Positions 1-17,034 of a stretch of 17,034 nucleotides of DNA are shown here, in pieces. Location of the stretch: assembly GCA_045863855.1 (NCBI GenBank), contig BTVV01000132.1, positions 1 through 17,034 on the forward strand, in the 5' to 3' direction. A program made the position numbers and the translations under genes. The first letter of the stretch is position 1. Every line of letters begins with the position of its first letter. Under the pieces are notes generated by a model. The model saw only the letters and a program-made list of their open reading frames with translations, had not been told where the DNA came from and made no database searches. Source of the DNA: Planctomycetota bacterium. GTDB lineage: Bacteria > Planctomycetota > SZUA-567 > H5-PLA8.

Positions 1-3000
1 GTTGCTTGGGTGTAATCCTGTACTTGGAAGTAGACCACCCCATCCACGGCCTGCCAGAAATAGGCGTACTGGTTAGGTCCAAGGTTCGTCAGCGGGCTTT
101 TTACCTCAGCACTGACCGAAATAGGATAATCGCCCGGCAGACTCGCCGTATCCGCTTCGCAAGCAAAACGGGGGACCAGCGGTATGCTCGCCAGCGTGTC
201 GCCATTCACCAGGCCCGTGTAGGTCGCCGTAAAAGGCGGATTCGGCTCGCCGTAAAAGCGCTGCTTGTCGTCCACCGTGATCGTCAGTGGTGCTTGAAGG
301 ACCGTGAGCAACACGCTCGCATGAGCCGGCTCATAGCGCGCCGGATCCGCGGGCGTGAAGGTGGCCGTGAGCGGCACGAAACCGGCATTGGGAACTTCCC
401 CTGTCGCACGATTATAGGTGAGCGTGCCCGCCGTGCTTGGCGTAACGACAGCATTGAATATGCCGGCCGAAAGAGGCTCGCCGTAGGTTATCGCAGCCGG
501 CTGAGGCCAGTTGATCACGGGAACGGCCTTCGTCACCGTGATCGAAACGGTCTTGCTGACCGCCTGGTAGTTCACGCCGTCGTCAGGCGTAAAGGTCACG
601 CTCAACTCGTGGGTTCCCACATCCAGGATTGTTTCCGCGCCTGGTGAGTAAGCGAACGCCCCCGGCGTATCCGACGTGGCGTTCAGTTGAGTGTCGCTCA
701 AGGGCGTCCCGTAGACCATGGGTGCTGGCTCTTCCCAGGTTACGACCGGGGTGTTCGTGAGTATGTCGACCGTATAGGCCCGCGATCCCGTTACCCCCTG
801 GCTGTCGGTCGCCGTGACCGTGAATTCGTAGCGGCCCGGCAGATTCGGCGTGCCTTCGATACGGGCCTCCGTGGAGATTGCCCCCGGCACCAGCGCCAGC
901 CCCGGCGGCAGCGTACCGGCCGAAATGCTGAAGCCGTATGGGTCCAGCCCGTTGGTCGTGTTCAGAGCCGCCCCATAGGGCTGCAGCGAGATCCCCGACG
1001 GAAGCGCCTCGGGATACACGATCAGTTTCTGTTCCGGCCCGATGAAATTCGCCAGGCTCGTGGGATTCACGCCCACGGGAATCGTGGCCAGATAGGTGCC
1101 CGTCGCAGCGTCAAAGACCGTAGTCGTGTTCGACCAATAGTTGAGCACCCACACTTCCTGGCCGTCGGGGCGCATGGCGATACCGGTGGGCGTCTGGCCC
1201 TGGCTGGGGAAGGTCTGGACCACGCCGCCGCTGGCCGTGTCCACCACCGCCACGGCGTGATCCGACTGGAGGGTCACGTAAAGCCTCCCACTGTCGGGGC
1301 TAACGGCCACGCCGGCTGGGCCGCCGCCCACGGGGATATTGCCCGTCAGGGTATTCGAGCCGGCGTCCAGCACGTCCACTGAGTTTGTCCAGTTGCTGGC
1401 GATGTAGACCTTCAATCCGTCCGGACTGACCGCGATGCCGTGCGGCGCGAGGCTGACCGGAACCCGGACGAGTTCGGTGTTGGTATTCAGGTCCAGCACC
1501 GACACTTCGTGCGAGCCGTAGCACGAGACGTACGCGCGCGAGCCGTCGGGCGAGAGCGCCAAGGCCACCGGCGCACCGCCCACCGGAATGGCGGCGAGCT
1601 GTTGCACGTAATTCAGGTCGAAGACCACGACGTCACCTGTGCTGTAATTGGTAACGTAGGCCCGTTGCGCATCCGGGCTGATCGCGATGGAGGTCGGCTG
1701 CTGCGCCGAGGGGAAGGATCCGGCCTTCGCCAACGTCCGACGGTCGATAATCTCGACGGTGTTGGTGCTCCAGTTCGTGATGTAGGCGAAGAGCGCGTGC
1801 GAAGCCGAGGCGCCGCCGCGCGGCCCGTTGAATCCGCCCAGCGTGGTCACAACGCGCTTGGTGACCGTATCGATGATCGTAACATCGTTCGAGGACTCGT
1901 TGGGCACATACGCATAGGGCGCGCCGGGCCGGGGCTGTTCGACCTTGATGAGGTAATCCCGCTGGCCGGGGTTGCCCAGGGCGTCCACAGCTTCCACGGT
2001 GAAGTGGAAGAGGCCCTCCATCACCGGGATCCCGGAGAGCGTGCCTGCGGCGTCGAGCGCCAGACCGGGCGGCAGCGCGCCCGCAGAGACCGAGAAGACG
2101 AACGGCGGCGTCGCGACCGAGGCACTCAGCGTTACGCCGTAGACCTCACCGATCAGCCCGATGGGCAAGTAGGGCGGCTCGATCACCGGCTCGGGACCGG
2201 GCAGCCTGCCCGTCGAGGCGTTCAATTCGAGGAGGAAGCCGTTGAAGCCCGTCGCGTTCCAGGTGCCGGGTGCACCGAGTCCGCTTGTGGTTCCAGACAG
2301 TCCCGCCGCAACATGAAGACGCCCTGGAGAGCCGGCGAGGCCGGACCATAACCCTTGCCCGCCGTGCACTTCCTGGATGCCATCCTTGTTACCGTCCCCA
2401 TCGGTATCGATGCCGAAGGACGTCCGAGGCTGGCCGGTGGTGGCATCCAGAGCCCACAACCGGACAATTTGCCAGGATGGACCGTTGCCTCCCAGAAGCG
2501 CAACGCCGTCCTGAACGACGACGGCTGATGCCCGATGGGACAGGGGCTGCACGCCGTCGCTTACGCCATCGCCCGTCAATTCGGCGCCAAAGCCCGCTCG
2601 CGGCTGGCCGGTGGCCGCGTCCAGACAAGCCACAAAACCGTTTCCAAGCTCGCCAGCATCGAAGCCGCCCGTGCCGCCGATTCCGGCGTTGTCTGAAGAA
2701 ACGTATCCGGCGAAATAGAGCGACCCGCCGGCGACCGCGATCCCGTTCCCATATTCATTCGATGACCCGCTGAAGGTCTGGATTCCGCTGGTTCCGAATC
2801 CTGCCAAGGGTTGGCCGCTGGATGCATCTATTGCCGCCACGAAGGCATCCTGCTGGCCGACGGACGCGACGGTGGCCGCCGAACCGATGCGGAAGTCGCC
2901 GCTTCTGAATTCACCCGTGACGTAAACCGTGCCGCCCGCCGCGCAGACTCGATACGCGGCATCGTAGCTGCTGCCACCGATGCGCTGGATCCCGTCGCCA

Positions 3001-6000
3001 ACCCCGTCACCGGTCACGTCCAGGCCAAAGCCGGAGACCGCAAGTCCAGTGCCTGGATCTAGAGCCAGTACAAATCCGTCCGCGATTCCCAGACGCGCAT
3101 AGCTGCCCGCCCCGCCCACGCCCGCGTTCGTGCTGTCGAACTCGCCGGCGACGTAAACCCGACCGGCTTCCGCGGCAACCGCGTAAGCCGCATCGGTGTT
3201 TCCATCTGCGCCGCCGAAAGTCTGGATGCCGTCACCGATTCCGTCGCCGTTCAGGTCACGCCCGAACCCTGCGCGCGGTTCTCCGGTGGAAGCGTCCAAG
3301 GCGGCGACGAAGGCGCGCGGCCCCAAGGAGACCAGGCTGGAGCCTCCGTCCGGCGACCCGATCATTCCGTACAGGGAGCCCGCGACGAAGATGGTTCCGT
3401 CCAGGGCCACAACGCCGTACGCCGTGGCGCTACCCGGGATAGTCTGCGTCCAGGCATAGGAGCCGTCCGCATTGAAGCGTGTCACGAAGGCCCCGAATCC
3501 GGTCTTCACTTCGACTCCGACCCCGGGATTGAAGTCCAGGGCATTGCCGTAGCGGCCGGCTACGTAGCGATTGCTGTACGTGTCCAGGCAGAGTCCACGC
3601 AGAGGGTCCCCTCCGCCCTGGATCACGGGAGGGAACGGGTTGGCGACGGCGTCGGCGTACACCGTGAAGGCCACGCTCTTCACCCCCATGCCCCCATCGT
3701 CGTCGAAGACGGTTAGCGTGACGGTGAAGTTGCCCGGATCGGCCGGCGTAAAATCGTAGCTCGCGGCATAGCCGTCGGTCCCGTAGGGCGCACCGTTGCG
3801 CATCACACTCCAGGTGTAAATGTGCGTATCGTCCGCGCCGGGATCGGCGACCGTGCCGTTAAGACCGATCGGGGTTCCCACGCCGGCGAACGGCGGCGCG
3901 CCCTGGATGGCCACCGTGGGCGCCACGTTGTGGACCGCTGCGTCCAGGCTGTCGGCGCCAAGGAGGCCGCCGGCATCCGTCACGCTCACCGTGACCAGGT
4001 AGATCCCATCGTCCCGGTAGGCGTGGCTGGCGTTGACCTGGTCGGCAACGACCGTGGCCGCCTCGACGACTCCGTCGCCCCAATCAATGCTCGCCGCGGC
4101 AAAGATCTCGCCTGGGTCATCCGTCACGGTCGCCATGAGCGCGAAGACCTGGCCCTCGTCGAGGCTGACGTTCGAGCCGGCGTCGACCTCAGGGGGCCCG
4201 CCTGCAATGTCCAGGACCATGGAAGAAATTGCCTCCGCTCCGGCGTCGTCTCGAACCCGGACGCTCACCGTATATCTGCCGCTAGTTGAATACACATGCT
4301 GCGCAGTGGCAGCGGCTGTAACGAGGTCTTGGGTTCCATCGCCAAAAGCGAAGATATAGGTAAGGATGTCGATCGGTGCGCCTGGGTCGCTTGCGTTTGC
4401 GGTAAGGGTAAGGACGGCGCCTGTCGTGCGCTCCCCTGTCACTACCAAGGGGTCCATCACGGCGAATTGTGGAGCTCGGTTTTCGACCGTCAAAGTCGTA
4501 TAGTCTTCGGAACTGCGTCCTAGATTATCTCTGACCCGTAGCAAGACCGTATATACACCATCCCTTCCCAGTCCCCATGCGCTGAGCGTCTCCCACGACA
4601 AGGAATGGCTTAGCCCGGGCAACTCGAAAAGACCGTCTCCGTCTAGATCCCATTCGGCGGCGGTCAAATCGCCCACCGACGCAGCCCCATCCAAGTTTAT
4701 AGTATCACCTTCCTGCACTACGTACGGTCCGCCAGCTGCGGCCACCGGAAAAAGCTCACAAGCGTCGCCCAAGCCGTCGCCATCCGTATCGGTTTGATCC
4801 GCGTTGGGAATGTCTGGGCAGTTGTCGCACTCATCTCCAAGGCCGTCGCCATCGGGGTCGCGCTGTGTGTTTGCTACGTTGGGGCAATTGTCGGACTCCC
4901 CGCAATATCCATCGAAATCCGCATCATCTGGCGCTGAGTATGGACATGGATCGCAAGCGTTACCAACGCCATCCCCGTCGGCATCGTCCTGGTCCCCATT
5001 GTGGACTACCGGACAGTTGTCGCAGGCGTCACCAACGCTGTCTACATCTACGTCACTCTGATCTGTGTTGGAACGAAATGGACAGTTATCAAATGTGAAA
5101 CAGACCCCGTCCTGGTCCTCATCGAGCTCCTCGTCAATATCACCATCGAAATCGTTGTCTAGGCCATCACAAATCTCCGACTGCGGATCGTCGCACGCGT
5201 TGCCTATTCCGTCGAAGTCCCAATCTGCCTGATCGGCGTTGGGCGTAAGCGGGCAATTGTCTATCGCGTCATCTACGCCGTCGTTGTCGTCGTCGGAATC
5301 GCAGGCGTCGCCGAAGGCGTCCCCGTCCTGGTTTGCCTGGTCAATGGTTGCCACCATTGGACAGTTGTCGAAGGCGTTCGCAACGCCGTCGTTGTCAATG
5401 TCCAGGTCACAGGCGTCCCCCTGGCCGTCCCCATCTAGGTTCTGCTGATCCGGATTGGAAATGGTTGGGCAATTGTCCACAATGGAAGGCACGCCGTCTT
5501 GATCCACATCGTTTTCGAGGTCGTATGGGCTGGGGTCGCACGGGTCGCCGATGCCGTCAAGATCGCTGTCGAGTTGGTCGGCGTTTGCGGCCAATGGACA
5601 ATTATCGCAAGCATCACCTACCGCATCCGCATCGTCATCTTGTTGGTACACATTCTGGATGTTAGGGCAGTTGTCGACGTTCCCACATTGGCCGTCGCCA
5701 TCCGCATCGTTCAGAGGATCGAAGGGACAGGGGTCGCAGGCGTCGCCTTGGCCGTCGCCGTCCGAGTCGGCCTGGCCCGGATTCGCATGGACCGGGCAAT
5801 TATCGACCGGGTCCGGCACCTCATCGCCATCCGTATCAAACAGAATCGGCGAGCTACCCATACAGTAGTAGAGCCCTCCCCAAACACCTGTTCCGTCAGC
5901 GAGGGCGACATGACTACATCCCACTGCCGCATCGCATGAGTCCGCCGTGCATGGATTCCCGTCGTCACAACTTAAAGGGGCACCAACACAGACTCCGTCC

Positions 6001-6758
6001 TGACACCGATCTCCAGAGGTGCAAGGGTCGCCATCGTTGCACGCTGTACCATTGGCCTCCAACATGCAGTCTACGCTGCGCGCCTTCACGCCCTGGGCCG
6101 AGTTGTGATCGAAGGAAAACCTTGGCACCCTATGAGGGCGAAGCCCAACGTGTCGGCCTGCGGTCGCGGCACTCGACGGCGAAGTCGAGACCGGCCGGAT
6201 CGGCGAGTTCATGTGCGGAGCCGCCGCGTGATTCGCAGGGGGCCGACTCGGGGCCGTGTGGACTTGCCCAGGTACTTGCTCCGCCACTCCCTGCCGGATC
6301 GAAGTGGCGCTCAAGACCTGTTGAGGCGTGGCCCTCGCCAACATGGGCCGGGACTGGCTCTCCGCTCGATGGAGCGCCAACGCGCCTAAATAGGGCTCGG
6401 TTCTCAAGAGCTGTTCGCCGTTTACGCCATCGTCGAACCAAGTCCGCAGCCGCACGTGCAGGCCATTCATGATTTTGGCGGAGATGGGCGGCATGCCTTG
6501 GGAGGTATCTCCCAGGATAATCTTGTACTGGCCTGCTTTGAGATCGGCAGCCTGCGGCCCCGAATTCCAGACCGCGTGCCGTTCTTTGTCGAGAATCTCA
6601 AAGCGCAAGGTGCCGCGCCCGCTAAATAGCCCCTCCGCCGAGACCACACGACCAGAAACACGTAGCCGCAGCAGGTCTTCTTCGGATCCCCAACACCCGG
6701 AAGCGAAAAAGCAGTAAAATCCCAACTGAAATACCGCGAAGTAACTAAGCCGGCTCAT
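1..6758 (-). CDS. Giant secreted multidomain adhesin-like protein, 3'-partial (>=2252 aa): signal peptide, fibre-type N-terminal domain, CTDC repeats, thrombospondin type-3 repeats, 4x PKD, beta-propeller, He_PIG-type Ig, YVTN propeller, He_PIG-type Ig, 2x Ig, MBG-like
   Basis: Hand translation of the minus strand from ATG 6758 (preceded by AGGGAG, 6 nt spacer) gives no stop down to base 1: MSRLSYFAVFQLGFYCFFASGC...YFWQAVDGVVYFQVQDYTQA. All short minus-strand ORFs in the track here fall in the other two frames, consistent with this frame being open. Confidence 0.95.
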   Translation of the reverse strand, partial: MSRLSYFAVFQLGFYCFFASGCWGSEEDLLRLRVSGRVVSAEGLFSGRGTLRFEILDKERHAVWNSGPQAADLKAGQYKIILGDTSQGMPPISAKIMNGLHVRLRTWFDDGVNGEQLLRTEPYLGALALHRAESQSRPMLARATPQQVLSATSIRQGVAEQVPGQVHTAPSRPPANHAAAPHMNSPIRPVSTSPSSAATAGRHVGLRPHRVPRFSFDHNSAQGVKARSVDCMLEANGTACNDGDPCTSGDRCQDGVCVGAPLSCDDGNPCTADSCDAAVGCSHVALADGTGVWGGLYYCMGSSPILFDTDGDEVPDPVDNCPVHANPGQADSDGDGQGDACDPCPFDPLNDADGDGQCGNVDNCPNIQNVYQQDDDADAVGDACDNCPLAANADQLDSDLDGIGDPCDPSPYDLENDVDQDGVPSIVDNCPTISNPDQQNLDGDGQGDACDLDIDNDGVANAFDNCPMVATIDQANQDGDAFGDACDSDDDNDGVDDAIDNCPLTPNADQADWDFDGIGNACDDPQSEICDGLDNDFDGDIDEELDEDQDGVCFTFDNCPFRSNTDQSDVDVDSVGDACDNCPVVHNGDQDDADGDGVGNACDPCPYSAPDDADFDGYCGESDNCPNVANTQRDPDGDGLGDECDNCPDIPNADQTDTDGDGLGDACELFPVAAAGGPYVVQEGDTINLDGAASVGDLTAAEWDLDGDGLFELPGLSHSLSWETLSAWGLGRDGVYTVLLRVRDNLGRSSEDYTTLTVENRAPQFAVMDPLVVTGERTTGAVLTLTANASDPGAPIDILTYIFAFGDGTQDLVTAAATAQHVYSTSGRYTVSVRVRDDAGAEAISSMVLDIAGGPPEVDAGSNVSLDEGQVFALMATVTDDPGEIFAAASIDWGDGVVEAATVVADQVNASHAYRDDGIYLVTVSVTDAGGLLGADSLDAAVHNVAPTVAIQGAPPFAGVGTPIGLNGTVADPGADDTHIYTWSVMRNGAPYGTDGYAASYDFTPADPGNFTVTLTVFDDDGGMGVKSVAFTVYADAVANPFPPVIQGGGDPLRGLCLDTYSNRYVAGRYGNALDFNPGVGVEVKTGFGAFVTRFNADGSYAWTQTIPGSATAYGVVALDGTIFVAGSLYGMIGSPDGGSSLVSLGPRAFVAALDASTGEPRAGFGRDLNGDGIGDGIQTFGGADGNTDAAYAVAAEAGRVYVAGEFDSTNAGVGGAGSYARLGIADGFVLALDPGTGLAVSGFGLDVTGDGVGDGIQRIGGSSYDAAYRVCAAGGTVYVTGEFRSGDFRIGSAATVASVGQQDAFVAAIDASSGQPLAGFGTSGIQTFSGSSNEYGNGIAVAGGSLYFAGYVSSDNAGIGGTGGFDAGELGNGFVACLDAATGQPRAGFGAELTGDGVSDGVQPLSHRASAVVVQDGVALLGGNGPSWQIVRLWALDATTGQPRTSFGIDTDGDGNKDGIQEVHGGQGLWSGLAGSPGRLHVAAGLSGTTSGLGAPGTWNATGFNGFLLELNASTGRLPGPEPVIEPPYLPIGLIGEVYGVTLSASVATPPFVFSVSAGALPPGLALDAAGTLSGIPVMEGLFHFTVEAVDALGNPGQRDYLIKVEQPRPGAPYAYVPNESSNDVTIIDTVTKRVVTTLGGFNGPRGGASASHALFAYITNWSTNTVEIIDRRTLAKAGSFPSAQQPTSIAISPDAQRAYVTNYSTGDVVVFDLNYVQQLAAIPVGGAPVALALSPDGSRAYVSCYGSHEVSVLDLNTNTELVRVPVSLAPHGIAVSPDGLKVYIASNWTNSVDVLDAGSNTLTGNIPVGGGPAGVAVSPDSGRLYVTLQSDHAVAVVDTASGGVVQTFPSQGQTPTGIAMRPDGQEVWVLNYWSNTTTVFDAATGTYLATIPVGVNPTSLANFIGPEQKLIVYPEALPSGISLQPYGAALNTTNGLDPYGFSISAGTLPPGLALVPGAISTEARIEGTPNLPGRYEFTVTATDSQGVTGSRAYTVDILTNTPVVTWEEPAPMVYGTPLSDTQLNATSDTPGAFAYSPGAETILDVGTHELSVTFTPDDGVNYQAVSKTVSITVTKAVPVINWPQPAAITYGEPLSAGIFNAVVTPSTAGTLTYNRATGEVPNAGFVPLTATFTPADPARYEPAHASVLLTVLQAPLTITVDDKQRFYGEPNPPFTATYTGLVNGDTLASIPLVPRFACEADTASLPGDYPISVSAEVKSPLTNLGPNQYAYFWQAVDGVVYFQVQDYTQA
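110..752 (-). other. Two Ig-like repeats plus an MBG-like domain (stalk region of the 1..6758 protein)
   Basis: TPVVTWEEPAPMVYGTPLSDTQLNAT, VPVINWPQPAAITYGEPLSAGIFNA, then APLTITVDDKQRFYGEPNPPFTATYTGLVNGD (typical MBG start). Confidence 0.75.
760..1025 (-). other. Putative Ig (He_PIG-like) domain
   Basis: PYGFSISAGTLPPGLAL...IEGTPNLPGRYEFTVTATDSQG. Confidence 0.75.
1040..1920 (-). repeat. YVTN/YncE-type 7-bladed beta-propeller
   Basis: About 42-aa repeats such as IAISPDAQRAYVTNYSTGDVVVFD, LALSPDGSRAYVSCYGSHEVSVLD, IAVSPDGLKVYIASNWTNSVDVLD. Confidence 0.85.
1945..2190 (-). other. Putative Ig (He_PIG-like) domain
   Basis: PFVFSVSAGALPPGLALDAAGTLSGIPVMEGLFHFTVEAVDALG. Confidence 0.75.
2200..3650 (-). 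repeat. Beta-propeller (SBBP/delta-60-like blades) with DxxGDG loop insertions
   Basis: Repeats of VYVAG...AFVAALDASTG.P.AGFG...GIQTFGG; first blade YVAGRYGNALDFNPGVG...AFVTRFNADGSYAWTQT. Confidence 0.75.
3655..4748 (-). repeat. Four tandem PKD domains
   Basis: PVAAAGGPY..WDLDGDG; YIFAFGDG..HVYSTSGRYTVSVRVRD; IDWGDG..HAYRDDGIYLVTVSVTD; YTWSV..FTPADPGNFTVTLTVFDDDGG. Confidence 0.85.
4755..5837 (-). repeat. Thrombospondin type-3 (TSP3) Ca-binding repeat array
   Basis: Ten DNCP motifs followed by N.DQ.D.DGDG.GDAC-type segments, plus two DPCP units; very Asp-rich; 26 Cys by hand count. Confidence 0.92.
5860..6068 (-). repeat. Cys-rich CTDC (Dictyostelium slime-mold-type) repeats
   Basis: CNDGDPCTSGDRCQDGVCVGAPLSCDDGNPCTADSCDAAVGCSH; 10 Cys in this segment. 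Confidence 0.8.
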
Positions 6759-6764
6759 ACCATG

Positions 6765-6770
6765 CTCCCT
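6765..6770 (-). promoter_or_regulatory. Shine-Dalgarno site of the giant CDS starting at 6758
   Basis: Minus strand reads AGGGAG-CATGGT-ATG. Confidence 0.65.
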
Positions 6771-6777
6771 GTTATCT

Positions 6778-7275
6778 CTATCGACCCGATACGGTCACCG
6801 GGCTGTCTAGTCCATGCCCTTCCAGGCTAGTCTTCAACTTGCGCGCCTGATTGCAGAACAACCAGCACGACGCGGCAAGCAGAAAAAGGTTCTTCACGAA
6901 TGCGCCGGCTGGGGTCTCAAGCACTTTCAGCCAGTGTTCATCATTCACACCTAGAATCTCGAGGTTCAGGCAGCCGCAGGAGATGTCCAGCCCGCGTGCC
7001 CAAGCCTGTCCCGTGGCAACCAAAAACGCGATGAAGAGGGCCACAACCCAACCACGCGCAGCCAGCGACATCCGATCCGCCAAGAGCAGTCCGCCGCAAG
7101 CCAACTCCAGCCATGGAAGTCCTACGGCCAGCGTCTTGGCAATGAGCTCCGCAAGCCCAAGATCAAAGGCGTAAATCGAAGCGAGGAATTTCACGGGATC
7201 GGCGAGCTTTGCTAATGCCGCGAAGATAAGCAGCAGGCCCAGAATCCATCGAATGACCGTCATGGTGCGGGTCAT
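6778..7275 (-). CDS. MauE/DoxX-family membrane protein (165 aa)
   Basis: RWILGLLLIFAALAKLADP..F..SIYAF, LPWLELACGGLLL, ARGLDISCGC are MauE-family motifs, with about 4 hydrophobic segments. Start placed at ATG 7275, which has GGGAGG upstream and overlaps the rhodanese stop as ATGA, rather than the track's 7320. Confidence 0.9.
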   Translation of the reverse strand: MTRTMTVIRWILGLLLIFAALAKLADPVKFLASIYAFDLGLAELIAKTLAVGLPWLELACGGLLLADRMSLAARGWVVALFIAFLVATGQAWARGLDISCGCLNLEILGVNDEHWLKVLETPAGAFVKNLFLLAASCWLFCNQARKLKTSLEGHGLDSPVTVSGR

Positions 7276-7925
7276 GGCATTTGCCTCCCGCTTTCCGAGG
7301 CGCTCACCGCCAGCCGCCACTCCGCATAGCCTTCATGCAGGTAACTCACCCGAGTAAAGCCGTGCACTTGCGCCAGCACCGTGGCGACTTTGGCAGCGAT
7401 GGCGCAATTCTTATTCCCGCAATAGACGACAATGGGCGTCTCCGGGCCATACTGCCGCTTGAAGGCGGGCACGGCGCTATCCAACTCGTTTATGGGAAGG
7501 GAGATTGAACCGTCGATGTGCCCCGCCTTGAAGGCTGCTGTTGGGCGACCGTCCACGAGCAGAATCCTTCCCTCGCGCTGCTTCGGAATGATCTCTTCCA
7601 GCGAAACGCCTAGCGGAATGACCAGTTCCTTGTCGGCCATGTTTTCCACTGAGAGGTGAACGTCCTCTTGCGCGTATACGGCTCCCTGCCGCGGAACAGC
7701 TTGAGCGCGGGATGTATCGAGAGCGCTCTCTTCGGGAAAGATCGTGTTCGACTGCAGCTCCGACTTTGGGGTGGGAGCCAGAACTGGCATTGCGGTCGCA
7801 GACGGGTCTTGCCAACGCACACCGAGAGGGTGCGAGTGGTTAAAAACCAGTCCGAGACCCACGGCCGCGACGGGAAGCAACGCGGCCTGAATCGCCGCCC
7901 TTCCAATCGATGCGCTTATACCCAT
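7272..7925 (-). CDS. Membrane-anchored rhodanese-domain protein (217 aa)
   Basis: N-terminal hydrophobic anchor AALLPVAAVGLGLVFN; rhodanese motifs LLVDGRP..FKAGHIDGSISLP, IVVYCGNKNC, GFTRVSYLHEGYAEW. Confidence 0.92.
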   Translation of the reverse strand: MGISASIGRAAIQAALLPVAAVGLGLVFNHSHPLGVRWQDPSATAMPVLAPTPKSELQSNTIFPEESALDTSRAQAVPRQGAVYAQEDVHLSVENMADKELVIPLGVSLEEIIPKQREGRILLVDGRPTAAFKAGHIDGSISLPINELDSAVPAFKRQYGPETPIVVYCGNKNCAIAAKVATVLAQVHGFTRVSYLHEGYAEWRLAVSASESGRQMP

Positions 7926-8066: not shown

Positions 8067-10586
8067 CTAAGGCAACAGCCACCAGTCCGTTCCGTCGCTG
8101 ATGAATTCGGCGGCTTTGGATTTAGACACTTTCCGGTAGGTCAGCCCATTCACCAATCCGCCGGCGGCTACCACCTTCGCGCTGGTCGCGCCTCCCGGAA
8201 GAATCTGGATCAGGTAGCGTTTACCCGTGTTTCCTGCAGCGACGGGTAGGGTGATCACAGGAACCGTGCGTGCCGGTGCGCGCACCAGAATGATGCCGTC
8301 GTTGAGCGTCAAAGTAGTGTCGCCAACCGCGATCAGGACCGGCGCCGCCGCCACCGCACCAGACGGACCTTGCGGACCCTGCGGACCTTGAGCGCCTTGC
8401 GGTCCGGCCGGTCCCTGCACGCCGGCAGGCCCCTGTGGCCCGGTCGGTCCTTGCGCACCATCTGGCCCTTGAACACCTTGGGGGCCTTGCGGTCCATCCG
8501 CACCCGCCACGCCTTCTGGTCCTTCCGGTCCCTGCGGGCCTTGCACGCCGGCCGGGCCTTGGGGTCCGACAGGCCCCTGTGCGCCAGAGCTCCCGTCTTC
8601 ACCATCTGCGCCTGCAGGGCCTTGCGGACCGGCAGGCCCGGCGGGGCCTTGCGCGCCACTAGGACCTTGGGGGCCTACAGCTTCCACGATATCGAAAGTC
8701 AGACCGGTGGAAACACCTCCTCCAGGCGTTGGATTAAAGGCCGTGATCGTGGCTGTTCCGGGAGTAGCAATGTCGCCCGGCAAGACCTGGCACTCGATTA
8801 CCGTGTTAGAAATCGGAAAGGTCTGGCGGTCCGAGCCATTCCATCGAAGTACTGTAGCGCCGGTTAAGCCTGCCCCAGTAACACGTAACCTGCCCGCGAA
8901 ACCGCCGGCTAATCCTTTGGATGGGCTTAGCACCGTCAACGATGGAACGGCGTATTCCACTGGCAAGCCCATTTGCTCCGTGTAGGTGAAATGGTCGATC
9001 GCCAACGTTCCCACTTTCACCTGAAGCGTACGAGGGTAAAGGTAAATGGATGCAAAGGATTCAGTAATTTGCGCTTCGAGCTGCGTATCCGAAATAAAAG
9101 TCGTAGGAAGCACTTGCCAATCCGCAAAAACCTTGGAAGCCGGCAGGAAGCCCGTACCGGTTATGGTCAGCGTGGCTGGCGTGTTTACATACAATGAGGC
9201 CGGTGTGACTGTCCCCATGGTGGGCGCAGGGTAGATGTTAAGTGTAAGGGCATTTGAAAGTCCTCCGACCGCCACGGAAGTGAAGACCGTGACTTCAGCC
9301 GTACCGGGGGTATTCACCAAGCCATCCGGCACGGTCGCGCGCAGCTTTCCCACGTCCAAGCACACGGTTACCAAGTCGGTCCCATTCCAGCGGACGGTGG
9401 ACAATCCACTGCCGAATAGTCCCGCGCCTTCAACAACTAGATCGCCCCCCAGCCCACCCGCGATGGCAAAGTCGGGCTGCAGACGATCAAGAACCGGAAC
9501 TGGCAAAGTGTCGAAATGATCAATGGTTAGTACGCCGCTGGGATACTGGCTGGAAATGAAAGGGCGGCCGGCGCTATTCAGTGCAATAGAATAAGCGCTG
9601 GTAAAGGAAGATGTAGTAGCTCGACTACCTGGTCCGCCTGCAGGGGGGGAGCCGACGGGGGCCGTTCCACTCCCCGCGACAACGGTCTGTACGTTCAACG
9701 TATCAATTTTTATTACCCTGGACCCAGAATAATTACCTGTTACGCAAAATAGGTTTCCGTCGGAATCAACAGCGATATCGTTGACTTGTCTGTAGTCGTA
9801 GGAGTTCGTAATAGTTGAAATGGTTCCCCCCGATATTTTTCGAAAACCAGGATAGGACTGTTGAGCGACATACAGATCACCGTTGGAATGTACCGCCAAG
9901 CCCACAGGATAGTAGATACTTGCTAGTAGGGGGTCGTTTCCATCGCCTCCGGACGCTGCCGCTCCATTGCCTGCAAAGGTCGAAATAGTGCCGTCCGTAG
10001 CAACTCTCCGTACTCGATGGTTTAACGTGTCTGCAATATAAATATTACCCGCGCCATCCACCGCAACGGCCCTTGGTTGATTCAGTCTCGCCTGTGTGGC
10101 CGGACCGTTGTCACCTGCAAACCCACTCGCGCCGTTGCCCGCAACGGTAGTAATAATCCCCGCGGTATCCACCTTCCGCACTCGATTTCCGGATCGCTCA
10201 GCAAGGAAAAGGTTTCCACTCGAATCCACGGCCACATCATTGACGTCGTTTAGCAGCGCATCCGTGGCCAAGCCGCCGTCTCCGGCAAAACCCGTTGCAC
10301 TGCTTTGACCCGCAACTCGGGACATGACTCCATTCGTGTCTACTTTGAGGACTCGACTTCCTGCTGCGATAAATAGATTTCCCGCACTGTCCACGGCCAA
10401 ACCGTTCGGTTGGATATTGGCATCCTTGGCGGCCCCCCCTTCACCTGGAGAAGCACTCCCACCGCCTGCGTAGAAGACGAGAATATCTTCCCCGGCCTGC
10501 ACAAGTCGCGCATTCCAAACCCCAAGAAGCAAAACGCAAATACACATCCCACGCACATGGTCGATCCGTCGCCATCTACCAAGCAT
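8067..10586 (-). CDS. Secreted NHL-repeat / IPT-TIG / collagen triple-helix protein (about 839 aa)
   Basis: The 855-aa ORF in the track. Preferred start is ATG 10586, preceded by GGGGAG and followed by a signal-peptide-like [27 protein letters not shown] repeats, three IPT-like domains, 36 Gly-X-Y triplets and a short C-terminal domain follow. Confidence 0.9.
8352..8675 (-). repeat. Collagen triple-helix repeat, 36 uninterrupted Gly-X-Y triplets
   Basis: [18 protein letters not shown]...[12 protein letters not shown], counted by hand. Confidence 0.95.
8685..9500 (-). repeat. Three IPT/TIG-like domains
   Basis: [81 protein letters not shown]. Confidence 0.85.
9520..10490 (-). repeat. NHL-repeat beta-propeller
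   Basis: [47 protein letters not shown] and related copies. Confidence 0.9.
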
Positions 10587-10633
10587 GCTCGGTCTCCCCA
10601 TTTTCCGATGAAAATCCCAATGCATTCGAACCA

Positions 10634-13600
10634 CTACTTCTTGTACTGCGTCTTACTGAGCCGAAGGAGCGCTTGCGTACCGGTACGCAAACCATCCACT
10701 TCAAGCTCGATGGGCAGCAGGATTGTTGCTGGCGCAGACGTGGAGGCCAATGGCGTTCCGAATACGCCTGCCGGCATCCAATGGCTCGCGGCCGTGATCG
10801 TCCACTTAGACTTGAAGAAGGTCATCGTCTGAATACCGGTCAGGGCCACCGGCAGACTACCCACTTTAGTGGGCCTCTTGTAGGTAAATTGCGTGAGGGT
10901 GGCGTTGGCCACAAATCCAGGAAGCGTCGGCTGATCGCCGGCATCCTCGCTGAAGGCACCCACGGTCAGCAGCGCGCCATCATTGCGGGGATCGAAATCC
11001 GCTCCACCCTGGGGCTTGAAATACATGGTCAGCATAATGCGTTCCTGCAATCCGCCGGAATTGCGTTGCGTGATGGACGCCTTCTCGACGAAGAAGATCC
11101 CATCCGGAAGATCGTTCAACACCGAGCCCCATTTGAAGTTGCCGGCGCCCGCCGCGGTGGCGCTTGCACGCGTGTAGTCCGTCTCCAGGGTGACCGCCGA
11201 TTCGAAGGCTCCCAAGCGAATCGAGACTAAAATGGGCTGCGGGGCCTTTACCTGAGGAACCGCCGCGAAGGGCGCTCCCAATGCGGCCTGCAAGTTAGCG
11301 GCCGAGATCGTGAACGTGAGGATTCCCGTGCTCCGATTCAACGCCGCCTTGAACTTGGGCGTGGCTCCCGTGGCGCTCTGCCAAACGATCTGGGTCGTGG
11401 TGATCGAAGTCGCGGCCAGCGGTGCGGCCGGCAGGATTGCGCTTCCGAACGCAAGTTGCACCGTCTCGACGCCCAGGTTGTTCGGATTCAAACCCGCCGC
11501 TGCCAGCGCCGCGAACTCCAGCTTGGCCTGCAAATTGAGCGTATCGAGATTTAATCCCTTCGGGAAATCCAACTTGTACTTCCCGCTGATCGGCCGCCAG
11601 CCGGCGTCCCCAGTGAACGCGGATACCAAAGGCGCCTCGGCTTCGTCGTCCTCGCTCTCACCTATCCCGTTTCCGGGTGTCGAGTCAAGATCCGTCTCGT
11701 TGGCGGCGCTGATCTCGGCGGAGTTGACGATTTCGCCGGAAGCGGTCACGGTGGCCGTGATCAAGAGGGTTATCGACGTGCCGGCGTTTACGGTCCCCAC
11801 CGTCCATACGCCCGTGCCGGACACGTAGGCGGCTACGCCATCGTCGCTCAGGTAGGTCAGCCCCGACGGAAGCAGGTCGGTCACCTCGACGCCGCTGGCG
11901 TTGGAAGGCCCGGCGTTGGTGACCGTAAGCGTAAAGGCGACGGTCTCTCCTACTTTAGCGTCGGAAAGGTCGGCGACCTTGGTGAGCGAAAGGTCAATCC
12001 GCCGTTGAATGGCCGTGCTTTCCGTATCTGAGTCGTCTCCCGTCTCGACGAGCGTCTCGTTCGCGGCGAGGTCCATGGCCGCACACGTGACGGAAGCACC
12101 GTGCGCCGCCGACGCGCCGGCGGTGAGCGTAAAGGTCAAAGTCGCGCTGCTTCCCGAGGCCAAACTGCCCACGCTCCAAGCATCGTCGGCGGTTCCTCCG
12201 TGCGTCCCTACGCTTGGGCTGGTCGAATCGAGAGTCACGCCGGAGGGCAGGGTTAGGTCCGTGCCGAGTTGTACGCCGGTGGCGTTGGACGGCCCGTTAT
12301 TGGTGAGCGTGACGGTATATACGAGGTTCCCCGCGCCGCTGCCGGCGGTGACCGGATCGGCGCTCTCAGAAACAGTCACTTTCAGGTCCGTTTCACGCGT
12401 AACGCTGGTGCTCTCGGTGTCCGAGTCGTTCGCGGCGGACGTATCGGTCTCGTTCACGGATTCCACTTCGGCCTGAAGCGAGATGGCATCGGCGGCGGCC
12501 GCGGCGCTGGCGCCGGCGAAGAGTACGATCGTCAGGGTCTTATCGGTTCCGGCGGCCAGCGTGCCCAGCGTCCAATCGCCGTCCGGTGAGCCGCCGTAGG
12601 TTCCTTGTTCGGCCAGCGCCTGCTTGAAGGTCACGCCGCTGGGCAGGGTGAGATCCGTGGCGATGACGATGCCGCCGGCATCGGACGGCCCGAGGTTCTC
12701 CACGCTGATCTGATAGACGAGGTTCGCGGGAAAGTTCGAGCCGGCCACGACGGGGTCGGTGAAGTCCACGACGGTGACTTTGAGGTCCACCTCACGGTAC
12801 ACGGTCGTGCTTTCGCTGTCGGAGTCGTTGGCCGTAACCGGATCGTCCTCGTCCACCGCGGTGACGGCCGGCGCGCAGACGATCACGGCCCCGTGCGCGG
12901 TGCTCGCCCCCACCGCCACGGTAACCTTGAGCGTCTCGTCCTCGCCGGGGGCGAGGGACGCGAGCGTCCAGGTGTTCGAGTCGGCATCGGAGGTCACGTC
13001 GCCGGCCGAGGGGTTGACGAAGAAGATCGAGGTTCCGCTGGGAAGCGTGAGCGTGTTTTCCAGTTCGATGTTCGTCGCCGCGACGTTGCCGGCGTTGGCA
13101 AGCGTGATCGTGTAGACGACCGTGTTGGTTCCGGCCTGGGCCGGATCTTCGCTTTCGGCCACGGTGACTTGAAGATCGGTGTACTGCGGCGTGACCGTGG
13201 CGGAGTCGTAGTCGTCGCCCGCGCCGTCGTCCGGGGTGCTGTCCAGATCGGCCTCGCCGGCCGCGGTGACCTCGGCGTGGTTGGTGATCGAGTTTGACGA
13301 ATTCGCCTGCGCGGTGATCTGAAGCGTGGCGCTGGCACCCTTCAAAAGTGCACCCACCGTCCAGACGCCGTTGACTTCGTCGTACGCGCCTGCCCCGTCG
13401 TCGCTCAGGTAGGCCAAACCAGCCGGAAGCAGGTCCGTCACTTCAACGCCCGTGACGTGATCTTGTCCGGCGTTGGTAAGCGTGAGCGTGAAGACAACCT
13501 CTCCGCCCAAGAGCGGCGTAGCGTCGTCCACGGTCTTGGACAGTTCCAGGTCAGGTTTCCGGTCGAGCACCGTGATCGTGAATGGCTGCTCCACGACCTG

Positions 13601-16600
13601 CCCGGAGGCGTCTGCTACGCGCAGGCGGATCGAATAACTGTTCTTGGTCTCGTAATCGAACTCGGCCCCTGTTTTGAGGTCGTTACCGGCCACTGTAAAG
13701 GAGCCGTTGTCCGTATCTCCGGTTCCGGATACGAGCGTGAAGGCATACGTATCGTCGCTTCCATCCTCATCGAGCGCGCTGAGCGCGCCCACGACCGTGC
13801 CCGCGGCGAGCGCTTCGGCGACTTCGCTGGAGGAAAGCTCGATTCCGGTTGGCGCGACGTTTACTTTCGCCAGGATGCGGTTGGCTTCGTAATGGAAAGT
13901 AAGCGCCTTGTTCGAGGGCAGCCCCAGCGCCTGCATGGTCAAAAAGGCCCCGCTGCGAGAACCGAAGGTCACCAGCTCCAGTTCCAGGCCGGCGGGCGGG
14001 TCGTAAGAGCCAAACGAGACGATCAATGCGCCGTCGAGCGTGGCCGCGTCGGCGACCTGCAGCTTCCCATGCGCGCCATCGGCGACGTGCAGCGTAAGCG
14101 CCCCCCCGCCAGACTGCCCGTAGTCGCCGGTCAGCGCCAGCTTTCGTCCGGCCGGAATGCTTAGCGCATCGCCCAAGGTCAAGTCGTTGGCTTTCGGATC
14201 GAAGTCCACCGTGACCACCGGATCGGCCACGCCTCGCGCGATGGTCACGTCGTAGCGCGCATCGCCCCACTGATGCGGAACCTGTTGCGGGTTCCACTTC
14301 ACCGTTTCGCTCCAAGAGCCGCTCAGGTCGGTATTCCAAACGAAGGCGTGACTCGTGGCCGGCGTGCCGGCCTTGATCCGGTAAAGCCCGCCTTCGAGGT
14401 AGTCGTGAGGGTGCTTCCCGCCGCTGTTGTAGCGTTTGTAATCCGAAACCAGCAACTGGCCGAAGGGGTCCACGATCACGTCGAGCGGACAGTTGAAGCC
14501 CTTCGCCAAGCGCTGCACTTGCCCGGTCAAGGGATCGGCCATGACCACGTCGCCGTAGCGCAGGGCCTGGAAACCGGTTAAGGCATCGCGCGTGAGGCCG
14601 CTCTCCCAAGGTGCGCCAAAACGCGAGATGAAGGCCTTCTTGTGGTAGCTCAAGGGGAACGCGTTCCCGGTGTAGAACGCGAATCCGTCGGGCGAGCTGT
14701 GCGGGCCCAGCCCGTTGGGGCTCGCCGGATCGTGACGCAGGACCGCCGGACCGTAGTTATGGTGCGTCACCGAGAAGACGCGGTTGCCCGGCAGGAAGAA
14801 GCCCGCGTCGTTGGCGACGGGGGAGTTTCGCCACAAGAGATTCGGCCGCCCGTAGTCGGCGAAGGGCGTGGCCCGGAAGAGTTCGTCCCAGTGGTCGTCG
14901 GTGAAGTCGTTGTCGAAGCTGTCGTAAGGCAGCGGGCCGGTGTTGTTGTTGGTCATCCAGAGCTGCCCGTCGCCGTCGAAGGCCAGCCCGAAAGGATTTC
15001 GCGCCCCGGACGAATGCACGCGGAACTTGTCGCTCGCCACCGACGTGAAGGGCAGACCGCTCTGGATCTCAGCCGTCGAGAAGCCTCCCGCGTTGTCAAC
15101 ATCGGGCACGGCGGTCAGATCGAGCAGCCGGCTCACCGTGCCGCCGTAAGGCTCCTCGTTGTCGCCTTCAAGCCCAGTCGGCCCGCCGAACTCGTCGGAG
15201 CGCAGCCCGATTCCCGCGAACAGCGAATCGCCGATGATCGCGAGCTGGTCCACGTGGTGGTAGTCGATGGGAATGTTCTGCACGAGCGCCACGCGCGTTT
15301 CGCCGCTCTCGCCAAAGACGCCGTTGGAGCCCTCGTCGCGCAGCCGCCAAATCGTGCCTACTTTGGCGCCGGTATCGTTGCTGCTTACATACAGCGTCGA
15401 ACCGTGGAAGGCCAAACCCAGCACCAGTTGTGTCCCGAAGCTCGCCACTTCCCGCTTGTCGCTCAGCGCGCCCGAGGCACTGTACTGGAAGCTATAGACC
15501 TTGCCCGAGGTCTCCGTCACGTACAGCCGCCCGTCGGGACCGAAGGCCATCTGCGATACCTGGTGGATGAAGTTCGAAGCCAGGGTGCTCGTCTCGCTGA
15601 TTCGTTCGATCTGCAAGTCCGCCGCGAAGTCGGCGCAGATCGAGGGCGCCCCGCGGCGCAGCAGGAGGCTGTAGTGGTTGCCCGCCATAGCTTGGCTGGC
15701 GGCGATCTTGATCAAGTAGGTTCCCGTCGTGGCGGCCGTCCACGTGCGGCCCTTGATGCGCATGCTCTCGCCGAACTCCTGGTCGGCCTGACTGACCGCC
15801 GTGCCCGTCACCGATGCCATGGCCGGGTCGAAAACCTCGACTGTCATTACGGTCAGTTCACTGCCCGATAAGGTTCCGTTGGCGTTCAGCGAGCCCCACG
15901 TGGCCGAATTCGGCACGCCGTCCTGGATGCGGTAGAAGACCTTGGCCACGAGCGCTTCACCGGCCGTGGCGTCCACCGCGTACCAATCCTCCGTGCCCGG
16001 CTGGAGGTAGAGGTTCGGATGCGCATCGGGTTCGAGAGCCGCCGCCGCGCCGGAGGTGTCGTTGGGTTCGTAGCGGTCGTCCACGACGACCGTCACTTCG
16101 GCCTGACCGCTCAAGGGATCTTCGCCGCCCGGCCCGTCGGGGTCGGCGCTCGCGGTCAGCCGGAAGGTGTATGAGAGGGCCTTATCCACGCGCACGCTCG
16201 TATCAGCCGCGTCCTCGGGCGTGAACGCGACGACCCCGTGCCCGGCCGTCTTCGTCCACTGGTACGTCAGCCCCGAGCCGCCGTAGGTGACGGTCGCGTC
16301 GAGTGCCACGTCCAATTCGCCCAGCTTCCCGGCAGTCTGCACGGGTACGGTCACGATGGATACGGACGGCGGCTGGACGAAGCCGAAGTCCACGGTCAGG
16401 TTGCCGTTCGTTCCGTCGCCGTCCGCGGGCGTATCCGGTTCGCTGCCTGCCGCCAGTGTTACGGCTTGGCAGGCCACACCCAACCCGGCGACGGTGGAGC
16501 CGTTGTCGTCGCCGTTGATGTCGTCGTCCGGATCGGGCGCGACGCCGTTCCCCGTGCTGGAAACGTACCCTTCCAGCGGGCCGCCCGAGGCGAAATTGGA

Positions 16601-17034
16601 CGGCGCGATTTGGACGAGATACTCGCCGTCGGGCAAATCGGCGAAGCTGTATGTTCCGCCCCCGGCCGTCGTGATCGTCTCGGTGAAGGTATCGCCCGCG
16701 TCGAGGCTCCCCGCCGTCGTGCCGTCGTCCGTATAGAGGTTGACCACCACGCCATCCACGCCGGTTTCACCATCGCCGAGTTCGTAGACGCCGTTGTTGT
16801 TTAGATCGCGGAAGACCAGGTCGCCGAGGGTATGGCCTGTCGAGATCGTGATGACGTAGGCGCTGCCTTGATCCAGCCCGGCGACGTCATCGTCCCCGGA
16901 CGCCCCCACGAGCGCCGTATCCCCAGAGAGCGCGACCGACCAGCCGAATTGATCGCCCGCCGCCGCGTCCGAGGCAGTGAGCTTCGCCTCCTGGCTCCAG
17001 ACCCCGGCATTGCGTACGAAAACGTACGCAGAGC
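10634..17034 (-). CDS. Giant multidomain surface protein, 5'-partial (>=2132 aa): FG-GAP, SdrD-B-like, PKD/Ig, PPC-like, glucose/sorbosone-dehydrogenase-like propeller, passenger-like segment, cadherin-like, 5x DUF11, basic C-terminal domain
   Basis: The 2091-aa ORF in the track. The frame stays open upstream of 16909 to the window edge ([44 protein letters not shown]), so the true start lies outside the window. Stop is TAG at 10636-10634. Confidence 0.95.
11635..13557 (-). repeat. Five tandem DUF11 Ig-like repeats
   Basis: Starts [42 protein letters not shown], each followed by (F/Y)T.T.TN.G-like motifs and a WT(V/L)G.L-like motif. Confidence 0.9.
13565..13860 (-). other. Cadherin-like domain
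   Basis: [59 protein letters not shown]. Confidence 0.85.
14370..15620 (-). other. Glucose/sorbosone dehydrogenase-like (PQQ-type) six-bladed beta-propeller
   Basis: [68 protein letters not shown]. Confidence 0.8.
15655..16082 (-). other. PPC-like (pre-peptidase C-terminal) domain
   Basis: [42 protein letters not shown]. Confidence 0.6.
16375..16835 (-). other. SdrD B-like domain
   Basis: [55 protein letters not shown]. Confidence 0.85.
16850..17034 (-). repeat. FG-GAP repeat (end of an integrin-like propeller)
   Basis: [32 protein letters not shown]...GSAYV. Confidence 0.9.

Follow-up and report, generated by a model that had tools for sequence, protein, structure and literature searches.

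A rhodanese–MauE gene pair beside a giant cysteine-rich protein in a Planctomycetota bacterium as a candidate disulfide-forming module

Contig BTVV01000132.1 (here C132) of a Planctomycetota bacterium (GenBank assembly GCA_045863855.1) encodes a rhodanese paired with a MauE-type membrane protein, directly followed by the gene of a giant cysteine-rich protein. The window, i.e., the whole stretch of DNA that was analysed, comprises the complete contig of 17,034 nucleotides, and all of its features described here lie on the minus strand. The rhodanese-domain protein (7272..7925, 217 aa) and MauE (6778..7275, 165 aa) are coupled by an ATGA stop/start overlap at 7272..7275, in which the TGA of the rhodanese overlaps the ATG of MauE. 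A 19-bp spacer containing a ribosome-binding-site-like GGGAG (6759..6777) leads to the third gene (3..6758), which encodes a predicted-exported protein of at least 2252 aa and is open at the contig end. An initial annotation had proposed that the pair is a dedicated redox module for the maturation of this protein. The layout on which that proposal was built, namely a two-cysteine rhodanese, the ATGA overlap, a MauE with a CGC motif, and the next open reading frame (ORF) 19 bp on, is present in full. The annotation had also seen neither mau structural genes nor MauD, and no MauA- or MauD-type family was matched in the five long ORFs of the contig, the part of the genome that was searched for them (mauA and mauB were not sought elsewhere).

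The rhodanese consists of an N-terminal hydrophobic segment, a Pro/Ala-rich linker, and a single rhodanese domain at approximately residues 115–204 (PF00581, E 3e-16, 60 bits versus a cut-off of 22.2). The segment, at residues 7–28 (7842..7907), is predicted from hydropathy to be a membrane anchor or signal and is followed by a conserved N-x-x-x-P-L-G motif. Among the untruncated homologues that are paired with MauE, 104 of 113 possess such a segment; by hydropathy, lysine or arginine lies ahead of it in 98 of these 104, and N..[SNR]P follows it in 79. The active-site loop C169-G-N-K-N-C174 (7404..7421) starts with C169 as the first loop position, and C169 and C174, both within YCGNKNC, are the sole cysteines of the protein. 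The CxxGxR-type loop pattern, which characterises GlpE-like enzymes, is absent from this loop. D125, C169, and C174 are invariant across an 89-row alignment, the rows of which had been preselected for CxxxxC. The CxxxxC loop is found in 129 of 133 paired rhodaneses and in 25 of 25 from an independent sample. The second loop cysteine is thus the family norm and not a peculiarity of the window gene; it also occurs in an unrelated rhodanese of the host on contig C9 and in the solved BH2092. Four paired rhodaneses (loci L062, L078, L082, and L267) lack the loop cysteines, with the CGC of MauE kept. A word search with the rhodanese at E <= 1e-10 returned the protein itself alone, and an exhaustive search returned 304 homologues.

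MauE is assigned by PF07291 (E 9e-22, 78 bits versus a curated cut-off of 27) and is predicted to form a four-helix bundle. The AlphaFold2 model, with a mean predicted local distance difference test score (pLDDT) of 89.5, places the helices at residues 3–25, 43–66, 71–93, and 122–155, and C100-G-C102 (6970..6978) in the loop between the third and the fourth. C[GA]C is present in 160 of 160 related MauE proteins, and K23 in helix 1 and E57 in helix 2 are invariant in 89 rows. A structure search with the model gave NACHO/TMEM35A as the best match (Z 12.2, root-mean-square deviation 2.4, 117 aligned residues); DsbB and VKOR are absent among the 50 matches listed, which does not exclude a likeness. 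Many close MauE homologues also carry a match to PF07681. MauE proteins from two phyla restore motility and PhoA activity to an E. coli dsbB mutant, and both cysteines of the periplasmic CXC are needed for this activity (Gonzalez et al., bioRxiv 10.64898/2026.03.05.709764). The same preprint presents MauE as the disulfide generator that probably ranks second in frequency among bacteria, addresses quinone binding by docking only, and leaves the natural partner open, assuming a thioredoxin fold. K23 and E57 would correspond, judged by position, to the conserved Lys and Glu described there.

The initial annotation had asked whether the two cysteine motifs lie on the same outer side of the membrane, and the predictions agree with this. 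An N-terminal hydrophobic segment with basic residues ahead of it implies an outer-side rhodanese domain, and the CGC sits in the helix 3–helix 4 loop of the model, the same loop that the preprint assigns to the periplasm; both motifs are therefore predicted to face outwards. Co-folding, proposed as a further check, lends weak support to binding between the two proteins: the predicted complex scored 0.60 versus 0.00 for the best control, the runs agreed in at least 95% of contacts, and the pLDDT of the partner was 69. With scores of 0.60 or lower, the mark was attained by 18 of the 157 solved complexes and by the two mismatches, among 215, that passed at all.

The giant protein contains 43 cysteines in all, and the 36 cysteines that had been noted in CTDC and TSP3 repeats were located within residues 231–667. 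Ten of them belong to CTDC-type repeats (cysteines 231–299, 5862..6068; Dicty_CTDC E 1e-7, 32.1 bits versus 27) and 26 to TSP3 repeats with about 26% Asp (cysteines 321–667, 4755..5837; TSP_3 E 2e-38, 130 bits versus 25). The overall architecture comprises a signal-like N-terminus, an Ig-like N-domain, CTDC, TSP3, PKD, beta-propellers, He_PIG, and MBG. Since the window ends with the contig, the C-terminus is lacking and the designation "adhesin" remains a guess. It is the sole TSP_3-matching ORF in the host genome, and its cysteine count is the highest among the genes predicted on host contigs above 5 kb, the next being 34. The Ig-like N-domain, a beta-sandwich at about residues 31–122 (6393..6668), is homologous to the N-domain of DsbA fusions that lie upstream of related pairs; its profile match (E 2.8e-10) is the only one in the host, and its model (pLDDT 89.4) gave no match in the PDB at E <= 0.001. 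A role of this domain as a module-specific docking tag was rejected, as it heads many large proteins and occurs in 29 of 49 genomes with up to 20 matches each. By eye, the N-terminus of the giant protein (6687–6758, minus strand) ends in F-A-S-G-C22, a possible lipobox.

The pairing is not restricted to this contig. Related loci were collected in two sets, the best 80 out of 186 from species and the best 80 out of 346 from metagenomes. Of the loci that left at least 500 bases of room, 72 of 78 from species and 44 of 47 from metagenomes have a rhodanese as the gene immediately upstream of MauE, and the 4-base in-frame stop/start overlap is found in 106 of 133 related pairs. As the pair, its order, the loop motif, and the overlap all recur, the arrangement is not a product of chance. 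An independent sample of 301 genomes, drawn from the phylum to which one Verrucomicrobiota locus belongs, has MauE in 127, and the 30 best-scoring loci contained 25 pairs. From this sample, 60 regions of about 12 kb were fetched, 22 with known pairs and 38 from further down the list with long contigs favoured; 35 of these 38 proved to be pairs as well. The resulting 57 pair loci served as the control set. None of them has a cysteine-rich exported neighbour (four flagged ORFs were judged cytoplasmic by eye), none has DsbA beside the pair, and 34 adjoin DUF1573. The rhodanese–MauE pair is thus a widespread family whose members mostly look like housekeeping genes.

Within this family, the window belongs to a distinct group. 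A 176-row tree, obtained by a quick search and left unrooted, places all 28 rows linked to cysteine-rich neighbours, the window included, in one 77-row clade (Shimodaira–Hasegawa-like approximate likelihood ratio test, SH-aLRT, 96), and all 50 DUF1573-linked rows outside it. A cysteine-rich predicted-exported neighbour lies within about 3 kb in 22 of 51 species loci of the clade, compared with none of the 57 controls and none of the 21 species loci outside the clade. The Fisher test for this enrichment (p 4e-6) is descriptive only, as kin are not independent. The enrichment of cysteine-rich secreted proteins expected by the initial annotation is therefore seen in the clade of the window and not in the rest of the family, where the pair is common without such proteins. 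The annotation had named precisely this outcome as refuting its proposal; it applies to the family at large and, within the clade, to 29 of 51 loci. The label "cysteine-rich" was assigned by hand to the output of a crude gene picker; it covers some truncated genes (L010, L012) as well as three opposite-strand neighbours (L041, L052, L061), while Fe-S, Zn, multiheme, and CoA-activase proteins were excluded. Two borderline cases outside the clade, a 28-cysteine protease 6 kb away on the opposite strand (L074) and a 17-cysteine beta-helix protein 4 kb downstream (L079), were not counted.

The neighbours belong to several unrelated families, namely TSP3 proteins, beta-helix proteins with CTDC or EGF repeats, DUF7507, Stig1-like proteins, and a 131-cysteine repeat protein, and they sit either upstream or downstream of the pair. 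CTDC occurs in 9 of 49 clade genomes, each time in an ORF beside the pair, and none of the 300 other genomes from the phylum has it. The 131-cysteine protein is encoded by a 743-aa ORF (L013:825–3053) with a signal-like start, CPDPC repeats, and no Pfam match, which is immediately followed by a tandem rhodanese and MauE. A conserved exported protein of about 290 aa with one bacterial-TSP3-like repeat accompanies the module-adjacent beta-helix/CTDC protein in twelve loci (L014, L019, L021, L023, L032, L033, L035, L037, L041, L046, L052, and L066).

A second recurring partner in the clade is DsbA. Of the 51 clade loci, 21 encode a DsbA fusion immediately ahead of the rhodanese, and 16 loci have both DsbA and a cysteine-rich neighbour. 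Among the 29 clade loci with full flanks, the neighbour is found in 9 and DsbA in 10. At the genome level, DsbA is present in 21 of 49 clade genomes versus 5 of 56 control pair genomes; of the 49, DsbB was found in one, VKOR in 19, and none of the three in 20, counts that derive from incomplete assemblies and leave other thioredoxin folds uncounted. In four loci (L017, L051, L256, and, by coordinates only, G185:C83), DsbA stands beside MauE with no rhodanese between. All six DsbA-less loci with a cysteine-rich neighbour and a visible upstream region (L006, L009, L012, L013, L016, L087) have tandem rhodanese domains, compared with 0 of 27 DsbA-linked loci; tandem rhodaneses also occur without a cysteine-rich neighbour (L044, L056, L057). 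DUF1573, an Ig-like domain, carries CxC in 50 of 50 matches and adjoins the control pairs mentioned above (within L198–L257 and L261–L276). It never stands beside the pair in the clade of the window, where DsbA takes the same position. DUF1573 may have been overlooked as a thiol partner of MauE or as its client.

In the host, whose genome is 93.9% complete, neither DsbA nor DsbB was detected with PF02600, PF13462, and PF01323. The thiol-redox set found instead comprises a four-cysteine VKOR, DsbD, and 13 Redoxin-family matches. Moreover, the host encodes a second MauE on contig C93 (10917–11366), and DUF1573 together with an anchored CxxxxC rhodanese on contig C42 (24926–26624). Grouping the window pair with this housekeeping set of the family was rejected (approximately unbiased test, AU, p 0.00036). 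Each of two congeners has a single strong MauE, and neither matches the module at the DNA level. The rest of the contig consists of two large cysteine-poor surface-type genes, one with NHL, choice-of-anchor Z, and collagen matches (8067–10634) and one with FG-GAP, SdrD, GSDH, cadherin, and DUF11 matches (10634–17034). One congener carries two 76%-identical copies of the DUF11 gene with no module downstream, which makes it probable that the contig is from this genus. Misbinning is accordingly not favoured, though the composition of the contig is atypical (rank 16 of 345 chunks). Taken together, the second MauE set, the AU rejection, the absence from the congeners, the atypical composition, and the sole TSP3 protein of the genome fit an extra copy that was acquired with its neighbour gene.

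These observations narrowly favour the reading that the window pair is an extra, acquired MauE–rhodanese disulfide module, which travels with the giant cysteine-rich protein and mainly serves it. Electrons would travel from the outer-side CGC of MauE to quinone in a DsbB-like manner, as suggested by the two distantly related MauE proteins tested. The tethered rhodanese domain, predicted to be on the same side, would have its C169/C174 loop oxidised by MauE; gene coupling, motif conservation, and the weak complex prediction point to this step. The oxidised rhodanese would then hand disulfides on. In this genome, direct donation to the cysteines of the CTDC/TSP3 region would be favoured, since no DsbA is detectable, whereas in related loci that keep DsbA the rhodanese would rather be expected to work together with it, either in series or in parallel. 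Within this model, direct donation and a relay through another thiol protein have roughly even chances. A role as an intermediary between MauE and either DsbA or DUF1573, or as a repair enzyme, would suit the rhodanese equally well. A bolder version remains tentative and is rather doubtful as a whole: in many phyla, MauE would as a rule have the CxxxxC rhodanese as its thioredoxin-free equivalent of DsbA, one clade would represent a portable folding cassette that was repeatedly recruited beside unrelated, extremely cysteine-rich surface proteins, and here it would oxidise the 36-cysteine TSP3/CTDC region directly.

Several points weigh against the favoured reading. Of the 51 clade loci, 29 show no cysteine-rich neighbour (20 of the 29 with full flanks), and the same-family pair L260 has none either. 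Only 2 of 7 TSP3 ORFs in clade genomes adjoin a pair, and the CTDC cases are not independent, as 8 of 9 represent one inherited gene family. The window rhodanese is single-domain, unlike those of the other DsbA-less loci with cysteine-rich neighbours. DsbA adjoins 21 of 51 clade loci and 16 of the 22 with such neighbours, so the rhodanese is not a simple DsbA substitute; the VKOR and the Redoxin-family proteins of the host are possible MauE partners too. The window MauE reads CGC-L-N and not the consensus CXC-F-G, its close homologues being mostly CGC-F-N/D/K. The topology was read from hydropathy and helix order only, and closeness of CGC and CxxxxC is not evident, since the prediction gave no contacts for the complex. 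Finally, the preprint terms MauE a generalist, and its two tested MauE proteins rescue dsbB without a co-expressed rhodanese; Phe-Gly after the CXC is highly conserved, yet it was no inclusion criterion for the MauE set (Gonzalez et al.).

Part of this evidence suits a different explanation, namely that the pair is a generalist envelope disulfide module which hitch-hikes on a surface-gene island, with the TSP3 protein as no special client. The lack of cysteine-rich neighbours in the controls and in most clade loci, the five TSP3 ORFs that lie elsewhere, the generalist MauE of the preprint, and the atypical contig with its two cysteine-poor giant genes would all be expected. The repeated adjacency to unrelated cysteine-rich families in differing arrangements is less easily accommodated, and the host already owns a MauE, a rhodanese, and DUF1573. 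In addition, two or more MauE are found in 12 of 20 genomes with cysteine-rich neighbours versus 9 of 29 others (genome size uncontrolled). This explanation is considered rather unlikely for the window copy. The term "dedicated" does not apply to the family as a whole, while a substrate-linked extra module is plausible for the window.

A further alternative, judged unlikely, keeps MauE as the oxidase and lets it act through a thioredoxin-fold or DUF1573 protein, with the rhodanese as an accessory off the main oxidation path that works on exported cysteines, either clearing persulfides or sulfenic adducts from them or reshuffling incorrect disulfides. Carrying sulfur is the classical role of the rhodanese fold. 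A three-gene set is completed by DsbA in the clade and by the CxC-bearing DUF1573 in 34 of 57 controls, MauE is functional by itself with the native DsbA of E. coli, and the 13 Redoxin matches of the host would offer partners. An accessory role is harder to reconcile with the almost invariant second loop cysteine and with the fact that the gene coupled to MauE is the rhodanese and not DsbA or DUF1573; in the four loci where DsbA stands beside MauE with no rhodanese between, the two appear exchangeable. A sulfur-metabolism unit that delivers electrons from sulfane sulfur or thiosulfate to quinone and is unrelated to protein folding is suggested by the combination of a rhodanese domain with a DoxX-like membrane protein, by PF07681 in many close MauE homologues, and by what is presumably a resemblance to DoxD and thiosulfate:quinone oxidoreductase (TQO), but it is very improbable, as the 45 largest neighbour clusters include no recurrent sulfur-oxidation neighbour, the partners that do recur are DsbA, DUF1573, and exported proteins rich in disulfides, and the role of the MauE CXC in disulfide formation was shown experimentally (Gonzalez et al.).

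Comparison with characterised systems helps to place the favoured reading, an acquired disulfide module for the giant protein. The window MauE resembles those of the preprint in its PF07291 match, four helices, CXC between helices 3 and 4, and conserved Lys and Glu, as well as in its occurrence without mau genes and without DsbB. It differs in its coupling to a CxxxxC rhodanese, in the L-N that follows the CXC, and in the adjoining candidate client. As in mauE-mauD-mauA (according to Gonzalez et al.), a MauE module would be encoded next to its disulfide-rich exported client; in contrast to the mau clusters, the window lacks MauD and methylamine dehydrogenase (MADH) genes, and the candidate client is a giant TSP3/CTDC protein. 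The evidence on whether the rhodanese replaces MauD is divided. DsbA is scarce in the control genomes and has no match in the host, but DsbA and the rhodanese occur together in the loci nearest to the window, four of which have an upstream DsbA (L010, L025, L034, L047), and the two tested MauE proteins did not require a co-expressed rhodanese. The more general proposal of an oxidative-folding route outside DsbA–DsbB is strengthened by the complementation of dsbB and by the host lacking a DsbA or DsbB match.

The DsbA–DsbB and DsbA–VKOR systems likewise combine a membrane oxidase with an outer-side dithiol carrier. DsbB and VKOR have two cysteine pairs each, whereas MauE has one, and the carrier candidate of the window has no thioredoxin fold. 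A precedent for a rhodanese in this role is PspE of E. coli, a periplasmic protein that is reported to replace DsbA/DsbB in part, together with DsbC, and to support disulfide formation when DsbA is missing (Chng et al. 2012, cited in PMC5403849). PspE has one cysteine and is reported to work with DsbC on overexpression, while the window protein has two loop cysteines, a membrane segment, and a coupled MauE. The loop spacing recurs in TsoB (NF045694), listed as a rhodanese/DsbD-fusion selenoprotein with UxxxxU (PMC13188914), which is likewise linked to a membrane thiol protein. The window rhodanese scores 26.3 bits versus a cut-off of 805 for NF045694, uses cysteine and not selenocysteine, and has a separate MauE and no DsbD-like fusion. 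DUF1573 with UGC is listed as a selenoprotein in two reviews (PMC9312934, PMC13188914).

The DsbB-like activity of MauE via CXC is already known, and the coupled rhodanese would be an addition to this recently described pathway. The main text of the preprint contains none of the terms "rhodanese", "operon", or "neighbo", and no description of a rhodanese–MauE partnership was found in the literature searched, which covered few subscription journals. Among the Verrucomicrobiota sampled, it is usually a two-cysteine rhodanese gene that is coupled to MauE, and 51 of 56 such genomes have no DsbA match, so the question of the MauE partner can be tested directly in E. coli dsbA dsbB strains. What the window adds is the clade split, the link to cysteine-rich clients, and a natural candidate client with 36 cysteines. 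If the bolder version holds, a protein-disulfide oxidase would have a rhodanese fold, and the literature searched contains no such catalytic role. Such an oxidase would fill a gap in the understanding of how disulfide-rich surface proteins are folded in Planctomycetes, Verrucomicrobia, and Chlamydiae (PVC) and would provide a compact two-gene folding system.

Two minor observations concern genes outside the window. In the genus of the window, the housekeeping MauE (C93:10917–11366) is located apart from the rhodanese and DUF1573 (C42:24926–25411), while other genera of the host family keep MauE, rhodanese, and DUF1573 together. A stand-alone VKOR at L004 (C140:1449–2057) has four Cys motifs and adjoins a small ferredoxin-like ORF, in a genome without a DsbA match.

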